DNA of 63,714 nt, filler included, from Candidatus Tectimicrobiota bacterium (GTDB lineage Bacteria > JACPSX01), in NCBI GenBank assembly GCA_016193065.1. It is 4 parts of 4 records of this genome, joined end to end, with 100 filler letters (N's around TTAATTAATTAA, not from the genome) between each part and the next. Parts side by side here need not be neighbours in the genome. Positions count along the whole stretch, not along the records: positions 1 to 7,791 come from JACPSX010000105.1; 3 more parts are not named here. One strand, given 5' to 3'. Positions 1 to 6,164 of this stretch are shown in pieces; within the stretch, counting starts at the first letter, position 1; each line of letters opens with the position of its first letter. The notes beneath the pieces are model-generated. The model had not been told where the DNA came from. It made no database searches and was given only the letters and a program-made list of their open reading frames with translations. The position numbers and the translations under genes are program-made.

Positions 1-408
1 GGCCAGTTCCTTGCTCAAAGCCCCGCCTTCCACCCGGTCCGTCCAGTCCTCCACGGGTCCCAACTTCCCATGGTTAAACCGGGGCATGTAATCGTCCAGG
101 GAAACCGTGGCTTCTTGTTCCTTCTTGCGCCCCCGAAGCTTCAGGTAGCAGAGATTTTTGGCGGTAGTGAAAACCCATGGCAGGAAAGAGCCCGGCGTCC
201 TCAGCGTGCCAATCTTCTCCAAAATGGTAACAAAGACGTCCTGGAGTACCTCCTCGGCATCGGCGCTGTCGCTCGTCATTTTCAGCGCGTAGTAGTAGAG
301 CTTCTCCTGGCACTGCTCCAGGATAGACTCCAGAGCCCCCTTGTCTCCGGCTTGCAGTCTCTTGACGGCTTCGCTGAGGGCCTCGGTATTTTGCGGGTTC
401 TTTACCAT
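1..408 (-). CDS. ECF (sigma-70 family) RNA polymerase sigma factor, 3' end beyond window start
   Basis: Manual translation, not in ORF track: MVKNPQNTEALSEAVKRLQAGDKGALESILEQCQEKLYYYALKMTSDSADAEEVLQDVFVTILEKIGTLRTPGSFLPWVFTTAKNLC...; region-2 motifs DAEEVLQDVF and FLPWVFTTAKN. Confidence 0.88.
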   Translation of the reverse strand, partial: MVKNPQNTEALSEAVKRLQAGDKGALESILEQCQEKLYYYALKMTSDSADAEEVLQDVFVTILEKIGTLRTPGSFLPWVFTTAKNLCYLKLRGRKKEQEATVSLDDYMPRFNHGKLGPVEDWTDRVEGGALSKELA

Positions 409-480
409 GGTAATCCCCTAATTTCAGCGCACTTCGTCGCCCGACCCCGCAGGGTTGGCTTCATTGACTTCTATCTTTTT

Positions 481-507
481 AAACGAGGAAAGAAGGCGCG
501 GGTTACA
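481..507 (-). promoter_or_regulatory. Putative ECF-type promoter (TGTAACC-N15-CGTTT) upstream of the second sigma factor
   Basis: Minus strand reads TGTAACC CGCGCCTTCTTTCCT CGTTT, matching the -35 AAC / -10 CGT pattern of ECF promoters. Confidence 0.55.
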
Positions 508-1051
508 GGGAGCCCAAGATTGCTTTAAGGTGTCCTAAGGCGCGATGGAGATTGACCCGGACTGCTCCGGGAGATGTCTCCGTAACGGCCGCAATCTCCT
601 CATGGGTAAGGCCGCCGAACCGGCTGAGGAGAAGCACTTCTCGCTGAGAGGACGGCAGGCAGGCGATGGCTTGTGTGAGCCGTTGCGCGAGCTCCTCACC
701 TTCGATCTTTTGAACCGCTGTGGGCGCTGGATCGGCCAGGCCTTCTAAGAGTTCCGGGACTTGATGCTCCCGGTCAGGTCTCTTCTGACGGAGAATATCC
801 AGTGAGAGGTTTCGTGCGATGGTGAAGAGCCAGGTCCGCAGAGTTGCCGTGGGACGGTAGCGGTCGCGGGCAAGGTAGACCCGAAGAAACGTCTCCTGAA
901 GTAGCTCTTCAGCAATCGCTTGATTTCCGATGTGCCGTAGCAGAAAGTTGAACACCGCCTTGTGGTGTCGCTCATAGAGGATTTGAAACGCGCGGGCGTT
1001 GCCATCGCGTATCTCCTCCATCAACTGCTCATCAGGAGTCTCTGGCGACAT
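503..1051 (-). CDS. ECF RNA polymerase sigma factor
   Basis: DEQLMEEIRDGNARAFQILYERH, AEELLQETFLRV, TWLFTIARN, region-4 LTHEEIAAVTETSPGAVRVNLHRAL; start placed at MSPETP (1051). Confidence 0.92.
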   Translation of the reverse strand: MSPETPDEQLMEEIRDGNARAFQILYERHHKAVFNFLLRHIGNQAIAEELLQETFLRVYLARDRYRPTATLRTWLFTIARNLSLDILRQKRPDREHQVPELLEGLADPAPTAVQKIEGEELAQRLTQAIACLPSSQREVLLLSRFGGLTHEEIAAVTETSPGAVRVNLHRALGHLKAILGSL

Positions 1052-1085
1052 CTTTTGCCCCGGTAAGGGGATCTTGTGGCCCAAA

Positions 1086-1376
1086 TTACCCTTCGATCGG
1101 CTCGGCGGCGAAGGTTCCAAATTCAAAGCTGAGCCGGTAGTGTCGGCCGCAGCATTCGATCCTGTCGCCCGCCTGGGCGCCTTCCGGTACGAAGATCCTC
1201 GTCTCGCATGTCGGACAGGTTACCCAGTGCGCGATGGTTGCCCCCCAGGAATCGTCCTCCTTCCTCAGCCTGAGGAAGAGGCCGGCTCAGTTTGGACAGG
1301 TGATTATGGAACCGTCCGTGGCGCCGGTCGGGACCGGAAGGTCAGCCCCGCAGTCTGGACAGCGAATGGTCTCCAT
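1086..1376 (-). CDS. Putative selenoprotein: 96-aa tandem zinc-ribbon protein (CPDC...CPNU...CPTC...CC)
   Basis: METIRCPDCGADLPVPTGATDGSIITCPN[TGA 1289-1287]AGLFLRLRKEDDSWGATIAHWVTCPTCETRIFVPEGAQAGDRIECCGRHYRLSFEFGTFAAEPIEG*; AAGGAGG RBS; hairpin CTTCCTCA-GGC-TGAGGAAG with loop 16 nt after the TGA. Confidence 0.8.
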
Positions 1377-1385
1377 GCTTCCTCC

Positions 1386-1625
1386 TTACAGTCCCAGCAA
1401 CTGCTGGAGCTTGCCGCGGTCGAACCCCACGACGGGCTCTCCGTTTACCAGGATCACCGGAACGGCGCGAGCACCGGTCAGGCGTACCAGCTCATCCGCG
1501 GCTTCCGGATGATCCAGCAAGTTGACATCTCGAAACGTGACCCCTTTAGACGAAAGAAACTCTTTCGCCGCCTTACACGAACTTCACGTCGGGGAAGAGT
1601 AAACAATGACCTGTCGGTTGCTCAT
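1386..1625 (-). CDS. Putative selenoprotein glutaredoxin (NrdH/YruB-like) with UxxC active site, 79 aa
   Basis: MSNRQVIVYSSPT[TGA 1586-1584]SSCKAAKEFLSSKGVTFRDVNLLDHPEAADELVRLTGARAVPVILVNGEPVVGFDRGKLQQLLGL*; cis-Pro AVP and GFD motifs; AAGGAGG RBS; hairpin GGCGAAAGA-GTT-TCTTTCGTC downstream of the TGA. Confidence 0.9.
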
Positions 1626-1647
1626 GGTGCGTCCTCCTTCCAGGTAA

Positions 1648-2058
1648 TCAATCTTTTGCCTCCAGGTCCAGCGCCTCCAGGATTGGGCAGGTGCTGGCGG
1701 GACCCTTGCCGGAACACTGCTCCGCAAGACGATCGAGGCCCTTTCTCATGGCCTGCAGCGTCCGGATCTTCTCTTCGATGTCCTTGATCTTGGCTTGTGC
1801 CCGCCGCAGCACGTCAGCGCAGCGGGCACCGGATGTGGCCCGCAAGGACAGCAGATCCTTGATCTCTTTCAGGGAGAACCCGAGTTCCTGGGCTCGTTTG
1901 ATGAAGCGGATTCTGCGGACGCTGTCCGACGCGAAGGCACGGTAGCCCGACGGTGTACGGGCCGGTCGGGGGAGCAGACCCCTGCGCTCGTAATATCGGA
2001 TCGTCTCGACATGCACCCGGCCCTGCCGGGCCAACTTTCCAATCGTCAGCGCTTCCAT
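1648..2058 (-). CDS. merR: MerR-family divalent heavy-metal-responsive regulator
   Basis: LTIGKLA...VETIRYYERRGLL HTH; Cys80/Cys115/Cys124 with the same spacing as MerR C82/C117/C126; GGAGG RBS. Confidence 0.9.
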   Translation of the reverse strand: MEALTIGKLARQGRVHVETIRYYERRGLLPRPARTPSGYRAFASDSVRRIRFIKRAQELGFSLKEIKDLLSLRATSGARCADVLRRAQAKIKDIEEKIRTLQAMRKGLDRLAEQCSGKGPASTCPILEALDLEAKD

Positions 2059-2080
2059 ATTTCTTATCCCTCCACTGTGA

Positions 2081-2112
2081 AGTTTAAACCCTGCACCTAG
2101 GTACAGGGTCAA
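2081..2112 (-). promoter_or_regulatory. MerR-type promoter with dyad operator in an elongated spacer
   Basis: Minus strand TTGACC-20 bp-TAAACT; near-perfect dyad ACCCTGTACCTAGGTGCAGGGT at 2088-2109. Confidence 0.88.
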
Positions 2113-2349
2113 GACAATTTTTCACTAAGATGCGGTGATAGACATAGATGGCGAAACTTTTGCCTCCTCTGATCAGAAGGCCCCGTGGACCCGGAATTGA
2201 ATCTACTTCATCTTGATCCCCAAAACTCATTGGTTTAGAATTCTTTACCCGGAACGGCCTGCGGTATTTCCAAATCATGTGCTAGTCTGCGACATGCGCT
2301 TGTGTAACACAGCGAAACTGAACGGGCTCAAGGTGCGCGAGCTGTTCCG

Positions 2350-2712
2350 ATGGCGCCTTTTGAAAGCGAGGGGTTTGACAGAATTTCGGATCGAGGTAGA
2401 GTATGGGCGAGGATCGATTACGTGGTGGCGGCAGCGGCGGGCTGACTGACGGGGACATTTGGACGCGCGCTGGCGGCGCGCCAGATCGACACCGATGACG
2501 GAAAGCTCTCCTCGGAAGTCACGGGGGAAATCGAGCTCGAGGGCAACGTCCTGATCATCCGGCGCATTCGCGTTCATTACCGGGTGCGGGCCGGAGAGGA
2601 TGAGCGGGAAACGATCGAACGGGTCCACGGGATGCACGCCGAGCGCTGCCCCGTCGCCCGGTCGTTGAGAGGAGCCATCGAGATCCGGACTTCCTATGAA
2701 CTGATTGCTTGA
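2350..2712 (+). CDS. Putative OsmC/Ohr-like selenoprotein (5' end uncertain, possibly truncated)
   Basis: ...IDYVVAAAAG[TGA 2443-2445]LTGTFGRALAARQ...HAERCPVARSLRGAIEIRTSYELIA*; the TGA sits at the first conserved OsmC Cys and the second Cys is in CPVxxSL; hairpin GCGCGCT-GGC-GGCGCGC follows. Confidence 0.78.
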
Positions 2713-2791
2713 GGGCCCGGTACGGCGGTCTCCGGGGCCGCTTGCTCCTGGCCCGGCCGGCGCGACCAAGATCGCTGGAGGGTAAACTCCC

Positions 2792-3658
2792 ATGTTCCTG
2801 ATGGCCGGGCTTGGCCTTGTGGTGGGAATTCCCCTGGGGTTCGGCATCCACCGCGGCGGCTTCTGCATGCACAGCGCCAGCCGGGAATTTCTCAGCGGGA
2901 CGCCCTCCCCGTCTCTGTTTGCTTACTTGCTGGCGCTGGGAATTCAGTTGCTGTTGGTGAACGGACTGGCGGCGGAGGGTTTCTTCGTACTGGGCTTCGC
3001 CATCGGGGGATTGCTTGCGGCCGAAGGGCTTCTGCGACCGCTGACCCTGTGGCTGTTGCGCTCCGCCGTCCCGTTTGCCGGGCCGGCCTCTCTCCCGTCG
3101 TTGCTGGGACTGAGGCAAGGCTGGATCATCGGGGGAGGACTGGCGCTGATCGCTCTCCTGTTCCGGATCCTTCCCAGGCCTTCCTCATCCGGGACAAACT
3201 GGTCGTGGCAGCGTACCGGAATCGTCGTGGGTCTCTTGGGGACACTGGCGTGGGTGGCGGGCGCGCCGGTGGGGTGGCACTGGGGNNNNNNNNNNNNNNN
3301 NNNNNNNNNCCGCACCCTCCTGGGGGGCCTGGTCAGCCCAGGGCAGCATCCCATGACCTGGGGCACCTTCATGATTCTCGGTATCCCTCTGGGAAGTTGG
3401 CTGAGCGCGTGGTCCCGGGGGACGCTGGAGTGGTGGGTGCCGGAGGGCTGGGAACTGGCGCGGCGCTTTTGCGGGGGACTGTTCATGGGAATCGGGGGGA
3501 CGGTGGCAGGGGGGTGCAACATCGGCAACTCGCTGACCGGGGTTTCCATCTTTTCACTGAACAGCCTGGTGGCGACGGCGAGCATTCTTCTGGGCGTGAC
3601 GCTGGCTGTCCGCGCATTTTCTTCCCGGGACCGGGTGTGCCCCGCCAGGGCGACTTGA
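2792..3658 (+). CDS. YeeE/YedE family (sulfur/selenium compound) membrane transporter; contains an N gap and an apparent internal deletion
   Basis: GFGIHRGGFCM and GGLFMGIGGTVAGGCNIGN motifs; many hydrophobic segments. Confidence 0.85.
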   Translation: MFLMAGLGLVVGIPLGFGIHRGGFCMHSASREFLSGTPSPSLFAYLLALGIQLLLVNGLAAEGFFVLGFAIGGLLAAEGLLRPLTLWLLRSAVPFAGPASLPSLLGLRQGWIIGGGLALIALLFRILPRPSSSGTNWSWQRTGIVVGLLGTLAWVAGAPVGWHWXXXXXXXXXRTLLGGLVSPGQHPMTWGTFMILGIPLGSWLSAWSRGTLEWWVPEGWELARRFCGGLFMGIGGTVAGGCNIGNSLTGVSIFSLNSLVATASILLGVTLAVRAFSSRDRVCPARAT

Positions 3659-3672
3659 ACTAGCCCTCCGCA

Positions 3673-4275
3673 TTAAAAGGCGACCGCTTTACCCTTCATC
3701 TCAGGATGCAAGGGGCAAAGAACCTGAAAGGTTCCGGTGTTTGTCGCCGTGAAGAAGATGACATCAATGTCGCCGGGGGCTGCATGGGCATGCACGGAGA
3801 GCTCAACGGGGCAGACTCCGGACGTGCAGTCGTGGTAGGGCACCAACTTCCCCTCGGGATGGTGAGCAGCATGTTCGCCTTGCGGAGTGCCCGCCGTATC
3901 TTCCTTGGACAGCCAGAGCAAATTGCTGGGCCGGAGCCCAATGATGTGGTAGTGGTGCTCCTGCAAGCCACGGTTCCGCACCACAAGCTGGATTCTCTGC
4001 CCGACCGGGATGCTCAGGAACGCGGGCAAGAAACCCGTATCCGTCATTTCGACGTTGATGGTCATGATGGCGGCAGATGAATCATTCTGTTTAATGTCCT
4101 GCCGGGCTGTTCCCGTTTTTTGACGAGGCGATGGGGTTGTCACTGCCCTCGATTCATTTACGGGTGATTTCCCCCGGCGTTGTTCGTGGGCTTCGCCCAC
4201 GGAGGCGCCAAAAACAAGGGGGATTATCATCACAATGACAAAGGCGTGCGGTCCCAGGTTGCGTTTCAGCAGCAT
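3673..4275 (-). CDS. Exported cupredoxin-domain protein, His-rich insertion
   Basis: N-terminal hydrophobic leader; FLPAFLSIPVGQRIQLVVRN, HHYH, GTFQVLCPLHPEMKG (type-1 Cu-like C-x2-H-x2-M). Confidence 0.75.
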   Translation of the reverse strand: MLLKRNLGPHAFVIVMIIPLVFGASVGEAHEQRRGKSPVNESRAVTTPSPRQKTGTARQDIKQNDSSAAIMTINVEMTDTGFLPAFLSIPVGQRIQLVVRNRGLQEHHYHIIGLRPSNLLWLSKEDTAGTPQGEHAAHHPEGKLVPYHDCTSGVCPVELSVHAHAAPGDIDVIFFTATNTGTFQVLCPLHPEMKGKAVAF

Positions 4276-4296
4276 ACGTCCCTCCCTTCATTTGGA

Positions 4297-4650
4297 CTAT
4301 GGCTGGCCGTTCAGAGATTTCAAATAGGCCTCCAAGGCGTCGATTTCCTCGTCATTTAACCGAATGCTGCTCATCTGGGGGCGTGTCTCCAGGGCACGCA
4401 GCACATCCGATATCGTCTTGCCTCGAATATTTGGAGCCGCAAATGCCGCTTTCCCTCTACCATCGGGGCCATGGCAATAAGCACACCCGATTCCCCCGGC
4501 ACTCCTCTCGAACACGATTTTGCCCTTTGCCACCAGATCCGGTTTCGCATCGTCATTGGCCGCACCGGGACCGACGAGTCCCGGTGAAACCAGGATGAAT
4601 GCGGCAATCCACACGAGGAGAGACAAACGTTTGCTCTTCAACTCCCTCAC
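4297..4650 (-). CDS. Monoheme class I cytochrome c
   Basis: Signal peptide, CAYCH, APNI, distal Met in PQMSS, LNDEEIDALEAYL. Confidence 0.9.
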   Translation of the reverse strand: MRELKSKRLSLLVWIAAFILVSPGLVGPGAANDDAKPDLVAKGKIVFERSAGGIGCAYCHGPDGRGKAAFAAPNIRGKTISDVLRALETRPQMSSIRLNDEEIDALEAYLKSLNGQP

Positions 4651-6164
4651 CTCCGTGAATTCGACGAAGACAGGATGGATTTCTTCTGAGCCAACATGCT
4701 GTTATGAATCCCGCCCTGGTCGGCGAGAAGCTCCCCGGTGAAGTCCGGGTTGTAGCGAACAAATCCTCCTGAATGTGTGTCCCCTCCGTTAGCGGAAGGG
4801 ATGCGCGCTTTGACCTGCCGTTTGCCCAGATCAAACACGATGGTTTCCAGGGTCCCCGAACTGGTTATCCACATCTCGTTGGCGCTCACATCAGGGTGGA
4901 GAGTGTTGTGGTCGATGGTCTGGCCCCCGATGGGGAATTCTCTGACGGTTGTAAAGGTCTTTGTGTTCACCAGGCCGAGAGAGCCCCCGAGATTAAACGA
5001 CATTTCACCTTTACCGATGACCCAGAGCTCGGTCTCGTCCCAGTTCAATGCGATGTTGTAGGGCCCCGGAACACCCGACTGGGTCGAGCCGACGACCGTG
5101 TCCGTGGAGTTGTCGATCTTGTAGATGCGGCTGCCGGAGGAGTCGCTGACATAGGTGTACTTGCCGTCGGAAGTAAAGGCAAAACCGTTGGGGTACATAC
5201 CCACCCCTGGAATGATCTTCACCCGGCCGCTGGCCAGATCCAGCTTGCCGACCGCCCCGGCGAGCTTATCGGCGACGGAACGGCCGCCGAGAATAAGCCC
5301 TGAGTAAATGTACCTGCCCGAGGGATCCACGTCGGACTGATAGGGAAGGGCATTGAAGTTGAGCGTTCCAAAGGTCATCACGATCCGATGATCGTCGTTG
5401 GGGTCCAGGAGGATGCGAGTCTGGTCGGCTTCAACGAGAACCCGATCGCGCCCTTTCCAGTCCCTGAACGCATTGACATGGTGAGGACCCACTGGTGTGC
5501 TGAGCACCTTGTCCAGCTTCAGCGTCCTGGCGTTGACGATCAACAGCGTGCCGCCCTGTTGCTCAACAGTCCACGGCTGGTCGCCATCCCCGGTGGGAAC
5601 ATAGAGCCATTTGCCGTCCGGAGAGATGCCCAGCCCGTGGGGGGTCATCATCTTTTTAAATCCCAGATCATAAGACGCGGAGGTGACAACCTCCTTCGTG
5701 TTGGCGTCAATAATCTGGAGACCCGCGAGCTTGTAGGTCTTGGAGTAAGTCCCCGCATAGCCCTTCCCTTCGCTGGTAATGAATACCAGTGGGTGCTTGG
5801 CCGGATCCCAGGCGTTCGGGCCGCTGGAATCATAGGTGGCAATCAACCGGACGTTGGCTTTCAGGGAAGTTTCGGTATCCCATCCGCTGGGGGGGGCTCC
5901 CTGCGGCGCCGCTTGAAGCTGGCCGGCCTGGATGACAATACTCGGCGCCATGGACTTTAGCTGCTGCTGAAGCTGAGCAATGATGCGTTCTTTCTCCTGT
6001 AATTGCGCTTGTAGTTGCGCGTCAGATCCTTTTTTCGCCCGTCCTACGGCCTGCGCTGCTTCACCTTGGGGTTGAAAAGATATGGCCCCGGCGGCCGCCG
6101 CAAGCAACGAGACGATTCCCAGGAGAACCCATCGAGCTAGGAGTTTCTTTGCTACACGGATCAT
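4647..6164 (-). CDS. Exported YncE/lactonase-like beta-propeller protein with His motifs
   Basis: Signal peptide, Gln-rich coiled segment, repeats PHGLGISPDGKWLYV and PNGFAFTSDGKYTYV; PHG, PHH, IDH, DTH motifs. Confidence 0.75.
   Translation of the reverse strand: MIRVAKKLLARWVLLGIVSLLAAAAGAISFQPQGEAAQAVGRAKKGSDAQLQAQLQEKERIIAQLQQQLKSMAPSIVIQAGQLQAAPQGAPPSGWDTETSLKANVRLIATYDSSGPNAWDPAKHPLVFITSEGKGYAGTYSKTYKLAGLQIIDANTKEVVTSASYDLGFKKMMTPHGLGISPDGKWLYVPTGDGDQPWTVEQQGGTLLIVNARTLKLDKVLSTPVGPHHVNAFRDWKGRDRVLVEADQTRILLDPNDDHRIVMTFGTLNFNALPYQSDVDPSGRYIYSGLILGGRSVADKLAGAVGKLDLASGRVKIIPGVGMYPNGFAFTSDGKYTYVSDSSGSRIYKIDNSTDTVVGSTQSGVPGPYNIALNWDETELWVIGKGEMSFNLGGSLGLVNTKTFTTVREFPIGGQTIDHNTLHPDVSANEMWITSSGTLETIVFDLGKRQVKARIPSANGGDTHSGGFVRYNPDFTGELLADQGGIHNSMLAQKKSILSSSNSRR

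Follow-up and report, generated by a model that had tools for sequence, protein, structure and literature searches.

What use could a metal-responsive promoter be in front of genes that are broken by in-frame stop codons? This question is raised by the first kilobases of the stretch of DNA analysed here, 63,714 nucleotides from Candidatus Tectimicrobiota bacterium (GenBank assembly GCA_016193065.1), which we call the window. Positions 1086-2112 probably represent a reduced mer-type operon in which a MerR regulator, most likely responsive to Hg(II), controls a glutaredoxin-like selenoprotein, Grx(U), and a zinc-ribbon selenoprotein, Znr(U), where U stands for selenocysteine (Sec). The in-frame TGA codons of these two genes, and that of an OsmC-like open reading frame (ORF) on the other strand, are best read as Sec codons. 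A sequence-only reading of this DNA had proposed as much, and the proposal is borne out by alignment of the sites with Cys in znr and grx homologues, by conservation of the proteins downstream, and by conserved hairpins in znr, grx and OsmC.

The minus strand of positions 1-2112 carries a tight run of features in the order promoter, merR, grx, znr, ECF sigma A and ECF sigma B, the last two encoding extracytoplasmic function (ECF) sigma factors. The MerR-type promoter/operator (2081-2112, minus strand) has a -35 element TTGACC at 2112-2107 and a -10 element TTAAAC at 2087-2082. Its spacer of 19 nucleotides (2106-2088, minus strand; CTGTACCTAGGTGCAGGGT) contains the near-palindromic dyad CTGTAC-CTAG-GTGCAG. 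The long spacer with a dyad operator is the target layout of a Hg-responsive MerR, and the promoter is predicted to drive merR-grx-znr. The merR gene (1648-2058, minus strand) encodes a MerR-family metal sensor of 136 amino acids with the helix-turn-helix and the dimerisation helix (PF09278 77.8 bits, PF13411 65.3 bits, PF00376 54.6 bits). Counted on the translation, its three Cys are Cys80, Cys115 and Cys124, spaced 35 and 9 residues apart, as in known Hg(II)-responsive MerR proteins. The grx gene (1386-1625, minus strand; 79 amino acids) has its TGA at 1586-1584, giving the active site U14-S-S-C17 (SPT-U-SSC). The znr gene (1086-1376, minus strand; 96 amino acids) has its TGA at 1289-1287 (CPN-U-AG). 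The sequence-only reading had placed these features and, on the plus strand, the OsmC-like ORF and yeeE. Each was found where it had been put, Pfam agreed with the assignments, and the loop distances of 16 (znr), 23 (grx) and 26 (OsmC) nucleotides were reproduced.

The codon at the active site of grx was examined through its relatives. Its glutaredoxin domain (PF00462, 68.2 bits) runs across the TGA. Among 57 protein homologues, 25 were aligned, and these fall into three classes at the site: full-length proteins with CxxC, full-length proteins with W at the first Cys, and forms of 60-66 amino acids that begin just past the site. The Cys forms are P0004, P0005, P0010, P0023, P0025, P0030 and P0032; the W is TGA translated as Trp by the gene caller. 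At the DNA level the comparison rests on 27 related loci, found when an alignment of the nine closest zinc-ribbon sequences was used to scan a single genome per species. They belong chiefly to metagenome-assembled genomes (MAGs) of Methylomirabilota/Rokubacteria, the remainder being single MAGs labelled Vicinamibacterales, Binatia, Actinomycetota, Limnocylindria, Myxococcales, Elusimicrobia and Acidobacteria. All 27 loci have TGA at the grx site, and in each of them grx precedes znr, the two genes being adjacent in 26 and 1.1 kb apart in L010. The Grx subfamily falls under every curated NCBIfam cut-off, the scores being 78.9 against 88.55 for YruB and 60.7 against 66 for Uxx-star.

The znr gene provides the Cys/TGA alternation at the DNA level. 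A word-indexed protein search with the zinc ribbon returned no homologue, and an exhaustive HMMER search was required; it gave 84 Znr homologues at E<=0.001. Position 30 of the full-length proteins among them is Cys, with conservation to either side. Across the 27 loci the codon is TGA in five (L001, L008, L015, L016, L023) and TGC or TGT in 22. Together with the Cys-form Grx homologues, this is the alternation expected of Sec codons. The 66 codons past the TGA are open in the window and retain the second ribbon and the family C-terminal motif, while no ORF of at least 30 amino acids starting with ATG, GTG or TTG is listed in the znr frame past the TGA. Homologues thus align past the site and Pfam domains span the TGAs, so that the proteins are conserved beyond them.

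Znr matches PF21344 with 29.0 bits (cut-off 27). Its first metal site has the ligands C6, C9, C27 and C/U30, and the second C54, C57, C/H75 and C76, the window having C75. An AlphaFold2 model built on a 33-sequence alignment is all-beta with a mean predicted local distance difference test score (pLDDT) of 95. Among PDB structures, LysW chains alone gave meaningful matches to the model, the best being 3vpb_E (E = 1e-2, Foldseek probability 1.00, target-normalised template modelling score (TM) 0.73, root mean square deviation 1.2 over 47 columns). Since the LysW match spans one half of Znr, the model suggests a tandem of two LysW-like ribbons. The ESM Atlas offered only automatic 'LysW-like' cluster names. 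On the FmdB model TIGR02605, P0002 scores 20.8 bits (cut-off 31.3), and NF041197 is not among the matches at E<=0.01. The possibility that Znr is a LysW/ArgW carrier protein was considered and rejected: NF041070 gives 58 bits against a cut-off of 75, and the identified neighbours are mer genes.

Both genes carry a hairpin that resembles a bacterial Sec insertion sequence (SECIS). The grx hairpin (1549-1569, minus strand; GGCGAAAGA-GUU-UCUUUCGUC) has its loop 23 nucleotides past the UGA and is near-invariant in 28 of 28 sequences, that is, in the 27 loci and the window. Within it the codons AAA (25/27), CTT (27/27) and TTT (19/27) recur. In merR, merB and znr nearby, AAA accounts for 11%, CTT for 7% and TTT for 11% of the codons for its amino acid. 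The grx hairpin is therefore kept through codons seldom used in these GC-rich genomes. The znr hairpin (1257-1280, minus strand) has a stem of 7-8 base pairs and a GGC loop 16 nucleotides past the UGA. All six TGA forms, counting the window, have 6-7 of the 7 stem pairs, and the window has 7/7. The Cys forms average 3.5/7 pairs, and 21 of the 22 have at most two contiguous pairs from the loop. The stem also shows compensatory change, with U-A in the window and L001 where the other TGA forms have C-G, and the window has two such replacements. Minimum free energy left TGA and Cys forms unseparated (means -19.5 and -18.9 kcal/mol; Mann-Whitney p = 0.40), and the position-specific stem alone separates them.

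If the TGAs are decoded as Sec, the organism would need the machinery for it, and this is present in relatives. Across five relatives' genomes, selA was found in four, selB in four, tRNA-Sec in all five (in one only at threshold) and selD in four; in three of the latter four, selD carries its own in-frame TGA. It was also observed that tRNA-Sec, selA and selB are clustered in four relatives (G001:C1:82001-86934, G002:C164, G003:C150 and G005:C139). The organism of the window is presumably competent for Sec as well.

The link to mercury comes from the surroundings of grx-znr in the 27 loci. A divergent merR is present in 20 of them, and a MerB-family gene occupies the space from merR to grx. 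In all, merB adjoins grx-znr in 22 of the 27 loci, and directly after znr comes a gene for MerF and/or a MerT-like membrane protein in 21. The MerF assignments exceed the Pfam cut-off (42-51 bits on PF11431, where the cut-off is 24.3), and that of L019 also passes NF033565 (50.6 against 50); the MerT-like protein is weak (18.9-21.7 bits against 32.9). The MerB of L024 scores 106.9 bits on PF03243, 68.9 on the NCBIfam MerB model (cut-off 193) and 57.5 on SaoL (cut-off 140), and the best-scoring model for the L024 regulator is again MerR. The relatives' merB has a TGA of its own (loci within L003-L027, for example L024:6093-6755), which reads SL-U-TT(L/I)NFFR; of the 21 loci that cover this site, 20 have the TGA and L002 has Cys. 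Downstream of the TGA comes an invariant hairpin, UUCUUCC-GGUC-GGAAGA, whose loop is GGUC. In the five genomes, eight MerB matches exceed the Pfam cut-off; they lie in three of the genomes and every one has one TGA. All 20 loci with a divergent merR share a promoter in the merR-merB or merR-grx gap, with TTGAnn, a 19-nucleotide spacer, the dyad CTGTAG-TTA-CTACAG and TAnnnT, and the earlier claim of a MerR-type promoter facing merR-grx-znr thus gains from relatives with the same layout. MerA above its cut-off was found in none of the five genomes (best 385.8 bits against 454.45).

It follows from synteny, the promoter and the merB and MerF data that the conserved unit is merR with a divergent merB(U)-grx(U)-znr(C/U)-merF/merT. 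Positions 1086-2112 of the window, judged from gene order, appear to be a variant of this unit that has neither merB nor transporter genes and whose operon begins with merR. In L008, L015, L016 and L026, too, there is no merB beside grx. TGA forms of znr lack an adjacent merB in 5 of 6 cases, as against 1 of 22 for the Cys forms (uncorrected for relatedness). The sequence-only reading had described a module with no merA, merT or merP in view. This holds for the window, where there is no match to a transporter or merB; MerA was judged on the relatives, no MerA query having been run on the window. It does not hold for the relatives, which carry merB, MerF and MerT-like genes.

Some further genes were noted beside the unit. 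In L016, after the module, a long ORF (1623-4385) has by translation a CxxC motif like that of a heavy-metal P-type ATPase, and ORFs of L005, L015 and L018 belong to the same cluster as this ORF. L018 has, by translation, two tandem merR-like genes and an ORF that resembles heavy-metal-associated (HMA) proteins.

On these grounds a mechanism can be proposed. MerR, most likely with Hg(II), would bind the dyad in the 19-bp-spacer promoter, and the metal-bound form would activate transcription of merR-grx-znr. SelB would decode both UGAs as Sec by means of the hairpins 16 and 23 nucleotides downstream. Transcription would probably continue into the two ECF sigma genes. The Grx(U)-Znr pair would then take Hg(II) from MerB or from importers by exchange of selenolate and thiolate ligands. 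The four-ligand site of the ribbon may hold the metal, and Grx may load, unload or re-reduce the ribbon. We infer the hand-off of Hg(II) because grx(U)-znr of the relatives lies between MerB(U) and MerF/MerT-like importers, in the absence of MerA. Two analogies may be drawn: MerB needs excess thiol for the release of Hg(II), and an archaeal mer operon has MerH, a small TRASH-domain protein, as a mercury chaperone. Taken as a whole, a broader proposal is possible, and we offer it tentatively. It states that Methylomirabilota/Rokubacteria and their neighbours have a MerA-independent, selenium-based Hg pathway in which MerB(U) or a MerF/MerT importer passes Hg(II) to a Sec-containing Grx and to a Znr chaperone or sink whose fourth ligand switches between Cys and Sec, that znr favours the Sec form where merB is missing, and that in the lineage of the window the module has come to lie after merR and ahead of the two ECF genes, so that the Hg promoter would also launch an ECF regulon.

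Several findings weigh against the reduced mer-type operon as we read it, and they are best considered together with the alternatives. Single-sequence folds of the three hairpins were no better than shuffles (z = -0.67, +0.24 and -1.79), and the case for Sec therefore rests on comparison with relatives. ARAGORN finds no tRNA gene in the 63.7-kb window, and nothing in it matches the selA, selB or selD loci of the relatives. One might suppose that this organism generally reads TGA as sense (Trp or Gly), as the W at these sites in database homologues could suggest, or that the TGAs are assembly errors. We consider either very improbable, and both were rejected. In the same window merR, the OsmC-like ORF and yeeE all end at an ordinary TGA stop, which means a standard code with no general recoding; the genes that follow have their own ribosome-binding sites, and the residue aligned in homologues is Cys, not Trp. 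As to errors, TGA is conserved in 27/27 (grx) and 84/84 (OsmC) loci from many assemblies. Logan contigs of groundwater runs also carry the TGAs of grx, znr and OsmC (2443) with the same letters. Record 4 of run X1 spans 301-1753 and differs only at 671, 680 and 683; record 7 of X1 spans 1724-2986, and records 19 and 21 of X4 span 1049-1683 and 2171-2739, all with no differences from the window. These runs may be the window's own source and are for that reason not independent confirmation. A further alternative concerns znr alone, namely that in the window its TGA really terminates translation, having arisen by recent nonsense mutation or decay, that only grx works, and that the cluster is a decaying remnant. 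The window znr does lie on the longest branch of the tree (0.96), which could reflect relaxed constraint, and the TGA forms may go back to a single origin, in which case the link between TGA and hairpin would not amount to six independent events. The neighbouring OsmC gene is truncated, yeeE is 141 letters short of the run contigs, and merB and transporter genes are missing, as decay would have it. Against decay, the 66 codons past the TGA stay open with the second ribbon and the C-terminal motif, the hairpin is intact at 7/7 pairs through its two U-A for C-G replacements, and five other loci share both the TGA at this codon and the hairpin. We regard decay of znr as improbable.

The metal is the other point at which the mer-type reading can be doubted. 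The best NCBIfam model for the window MerR is TIGR02051 (MerR) with 141.9 bits, below the equivalog cut-off of 150.85, and ZntR (122.7 and 118.1 bits), CueR (120.1) and CadR/PbrR (107.2) are close behind. PbrR has the same Cys spacing as the window MerR, so that the metal may be other than Hg(II). In the window there is no merB (best tblastn E = 1.4) and no MerF/MerT-like match at E<=1. The mercury link of the earlier reading stands on merB and MerF/MerT-like neighbours in most relatives and is weakened by the score of the window MerR. A module for metal or thiol stress that is not specific to Hg would fit these observations: MerR would sense Pb, Cd, Zn or Cu, Grx(U) would repair oxidised or metal-blocked thiols, and Znr would be a structural zinc protein or a redox switch signalling to the ECF factors. 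The ECF genes do follow directly, with no terminator-like site on the strand, and the putative HMA-like P-type ATPase after the module in L016, with its cluster members in L005, L015 and L018, also agrees with a broader metal range. However, the pair in the relatives is embedded between merB and MerF/MerT-like genes, MerR is the top regulator model in both the window and L024, and no ECF gene stands beside the module in the relatives. We therefore consider a non-Hg module unlikely, while giving it more weight than the decay of znr, and keep the Hg-responsive mer-type operon as the probable reading.

The two ECF genes deserve separate mention, since the sequence-only reading had treated their coupling to the selenoprotein genes as part of the system. 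ECF sigma factor A (503-1051, minus strand) starts 35 nucleotides after the znr stop and has sigma-70 regions 2 and 4 (PF04542 67.6 bits, PF08281 63.1 bits), as expected of the family. Of ECF sigma factor B (1-408, minus strand) the N-terminal part is present (PF04542 53.8 bits), cut by the end of the window, and it shows region 2 only because the window ends there. The terminator scan found no terminator-like site between znr and ECF A on the minus strand. Co-transcription is thus possible, but it would be specific to the lineage of the window: an ECF gene beside the module occurs in none of the 27 relatives, the single match (L013) being about 5 kb upstream. In a second study, contigs that share about 95% identity with the window keep znr beside the first ECF gene. 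As a general feature of the system, ECF coupling was not supported.

On the plus strand, divergent from merR, lies an OsmC-like selenoprotein gene remnant (2350-2712; PF02566, 57 bits) with a TGA at 2443-2445, the first conserved Cys of the Pfam model. Its hairpin (2465-2481, plus strand) has the loop 26 nucleotides past the TGA. This gene belongs to a subfamily, OsmC(U), of about 155-160 amino acids, represented by 84 loci (L043-L122 and L039-L042) from a metagenome scan and four genome loci. All 84 are full length and all 84 have TGA at the first catalytic Cys. The TGA falls on a conserved Cys of the Pfam model, but a Cys form was absent from the 84. The family hairpin GCGCGCU-GGN-GGCGCGY is conserved in 85 sequences by RNAalifold and kept in the window. 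The window copy matches its own family only from 2413 onward. In tblastn with five full-length homologues the alignment begins at their residues 57-60, and none of the frames of 2000-2800 held a counterpart of their N-terminal region (about 58 residues). The window copy retains the Pfam domain and lacks the N-terminal region of a complete OsmC/Ohr fold. The run contigs bridge the truncation junction with no differences. Full-length OsmC P0063 matches no NCBIfam model at E<=0.001, and the window copy scores 24.6 bits on NF041052 (cut-off 95). From these alignments we take the ORF to be what is left, after 5' truncation, of a gene from an unrelated selenoprotein family that always has TGA. A sigma-70-like promoter match was seen at 2375-2402 on the plus strand (TTGACA, 16 nucleotides, TAGAGT; 10/12), inside the OsmC ORF and just 5' of the start of homology; it may drive the remnant and yeeE, or be a chance match.

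Next to it is a gene for a YeeE/YedE-like membrane protein (2792-3658, plus strand; PF04143 27.1 bits, cut-off 27) that contains a run of N at 3286-3309 (24 bases). The X1 and X4 contigs have 141 extra letters between 2986 and 2987, which are 47 yeeE codons missing from the window, and the window yeeE is probably mis-assembled or a deletion variant. The sequence-only reading had counted OsmC and yeeE as members of the module. This has to be given up: merR, grx, znr or yeeE lies beside OsmC(U) in 0 of the 84 loci, no OsmC-like or yeeE gene was found in the 27 grx-znr loci, and the OsmC copy is truncated. The yeeE gene is a bystander outside the module.

Elsewhere in the window, a scan for further read-through ORFs gave 62 raw candidates, and Rfam at gathering thresholds gave no match over the whole window. 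Past yeeE, the minus strand of 3673-6164 has a cupredoxin-domain protein (PF13473, 40.4 bits), a small CxxCH ORF (4297-4650) and a 505-amino-acid ORF, which may form a copper or electron-transfer cluster.

Public protein sets carry the marks of the same TGA codons. P0006, P0013, P0028, P0031, P0062-P0066 and others are truncated past the TGA or have W at the Sec site. P0164 resembles the C-terminus of Grx fused to the zinc ribbon, and P0180 resembles the zinc ribbon fused to MerF; these two are probably products of faulty gene calling, and their make-up mirrors the order of the genes. The earlier statement that such genes are invisible to ordinary ORF calling is thus accurate, in that database homologues are truncated past the TGA or carry W there.

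What do these genes add to the picture of mercury handling? Mercury resistance is usually pictured as MerR, transport and MerA, with or without MerB. Here, widespread soil and groundwater bacteria bear mer-type clusters without MerA and with up to three Sec proteins, namely MerB, Grx and the zinc ribbon. Standard annotation truncates MerB(U), Grx(U) and the Sec zinc ribbon, and metagenome surveys of mer genes may for this reason undercount MerB in these phyla. We found eight MerB matches in three of five relatives' genomes, as compared with a single MerB for Rokubacteria in the survey table of PMC8261052. The znr gene is a natural Cys/Sec switch at a metal-ligand position and would be useful for the study of Hg-Se chemistry in proteins.

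The sequence-only reading knew of no description of the arrangement, and this is correct in part. Table 1 of PMC13188914 lists 119 selenoprotein families, to which the zinc-ribbon protein would add one. Among them are Grx (UxxC, PF00462, experimentally verified), OsmC-like proteins and SaoL (CU), so that Grx UxxC and OsmC-like selenoproteins were already catalogued; the OsmC-like selenoprotein (PF02566) comes from a Sargasso Sea study cited in the same table. Related to Hg, the table has a putative MerT (C/SxxU), a putative mercuric-reductase-like metal binder (UxxU) and an FmdB zinc ribbon (UxxU), and it has no LysW-like tandem ribbon and no SL-U MerB (PMC13188914). No NCBIfam model of release 20 is passed by the present proteins, with the exception of MerF of L019. 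In the searched literature no description of the MerB(U)-Grx(U)-Znr arrangement or of a zinc-ribbon selenoprotein was found. Novelty is accordingly limited to the searchable literature, because recent surveys or supplements could already list the znr or MerB(U) families.

The proteins compare with known systems as follows. The present Grx shares with the catalogued Grx selenoprotein the glutaredoxin fold, a CxxC motif whose first Cys is replaced by Sec, and a SECIS hairpin shortly after it, whereas its subfamily is under the NCBIfam cut-offs and is tied to znr within mer-type clusters. The OsmC copy of the window agrees with the catalogued OsmC-like selenoprotein in having Sec at the first catalytic Cys of the OsmC fold and differs in having lost about 58 N-terminal residues. 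The catalogued Sec forms of MerT, the mercuric-reductase-like binder and FmdB resemble Znr in using Sec for a metal-ligand Cys in small metal-handling proteins, but are of other folds and families. As compared with LysW/ArgW (PF21344, 3vpb_E), each half of Znr is predicted to have the LysW zinc-ribbon fold, while Znr has two ribbons, one ligand that is Cys or Sec, and mer neighbours (lysine and arginine biosynthesis genes were not searched for). SaoL of the SAO system (10.1101/2022.07.06.499078) is a MerB-family selenoprotein of anaerobes with a CU motif and a nine-gene neighbourhood for ABC (ATP-binding cassette) transport. SaoL and the relatives' MerB(U) are alike in family, in having Sec about 50 residues from the C-terminus, in lying in an operon that encodes several selenoproteins, one of them with a thioredoxin fold, and in a proposed metal role. 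They differ in that the relatives' MerB has SL-U-TT, a form distinct from the CU motif, and has MerR, Grx, Znr and MerF/MerT-like partners, and the window has no MerB match. There is also a parallel in layout with mercury resistance operons. Classical mer operons are of the Tn501/Tn21 type or of a Gram-positive type with merR as the first gene, and they have a three-Cys MerR and a promoter with a 19-bp spacer in which the dyad directly follows the -35 element. The three-Cys MerR and the promoter layout recur here, as do merB and merF/merT in the relatives. In contrast to the classical operons, the relatives have no MerA above cut-off in the five genomes, and the clusters have an additional grx(U) and znr, with Sec at catalytic or ligand positions.

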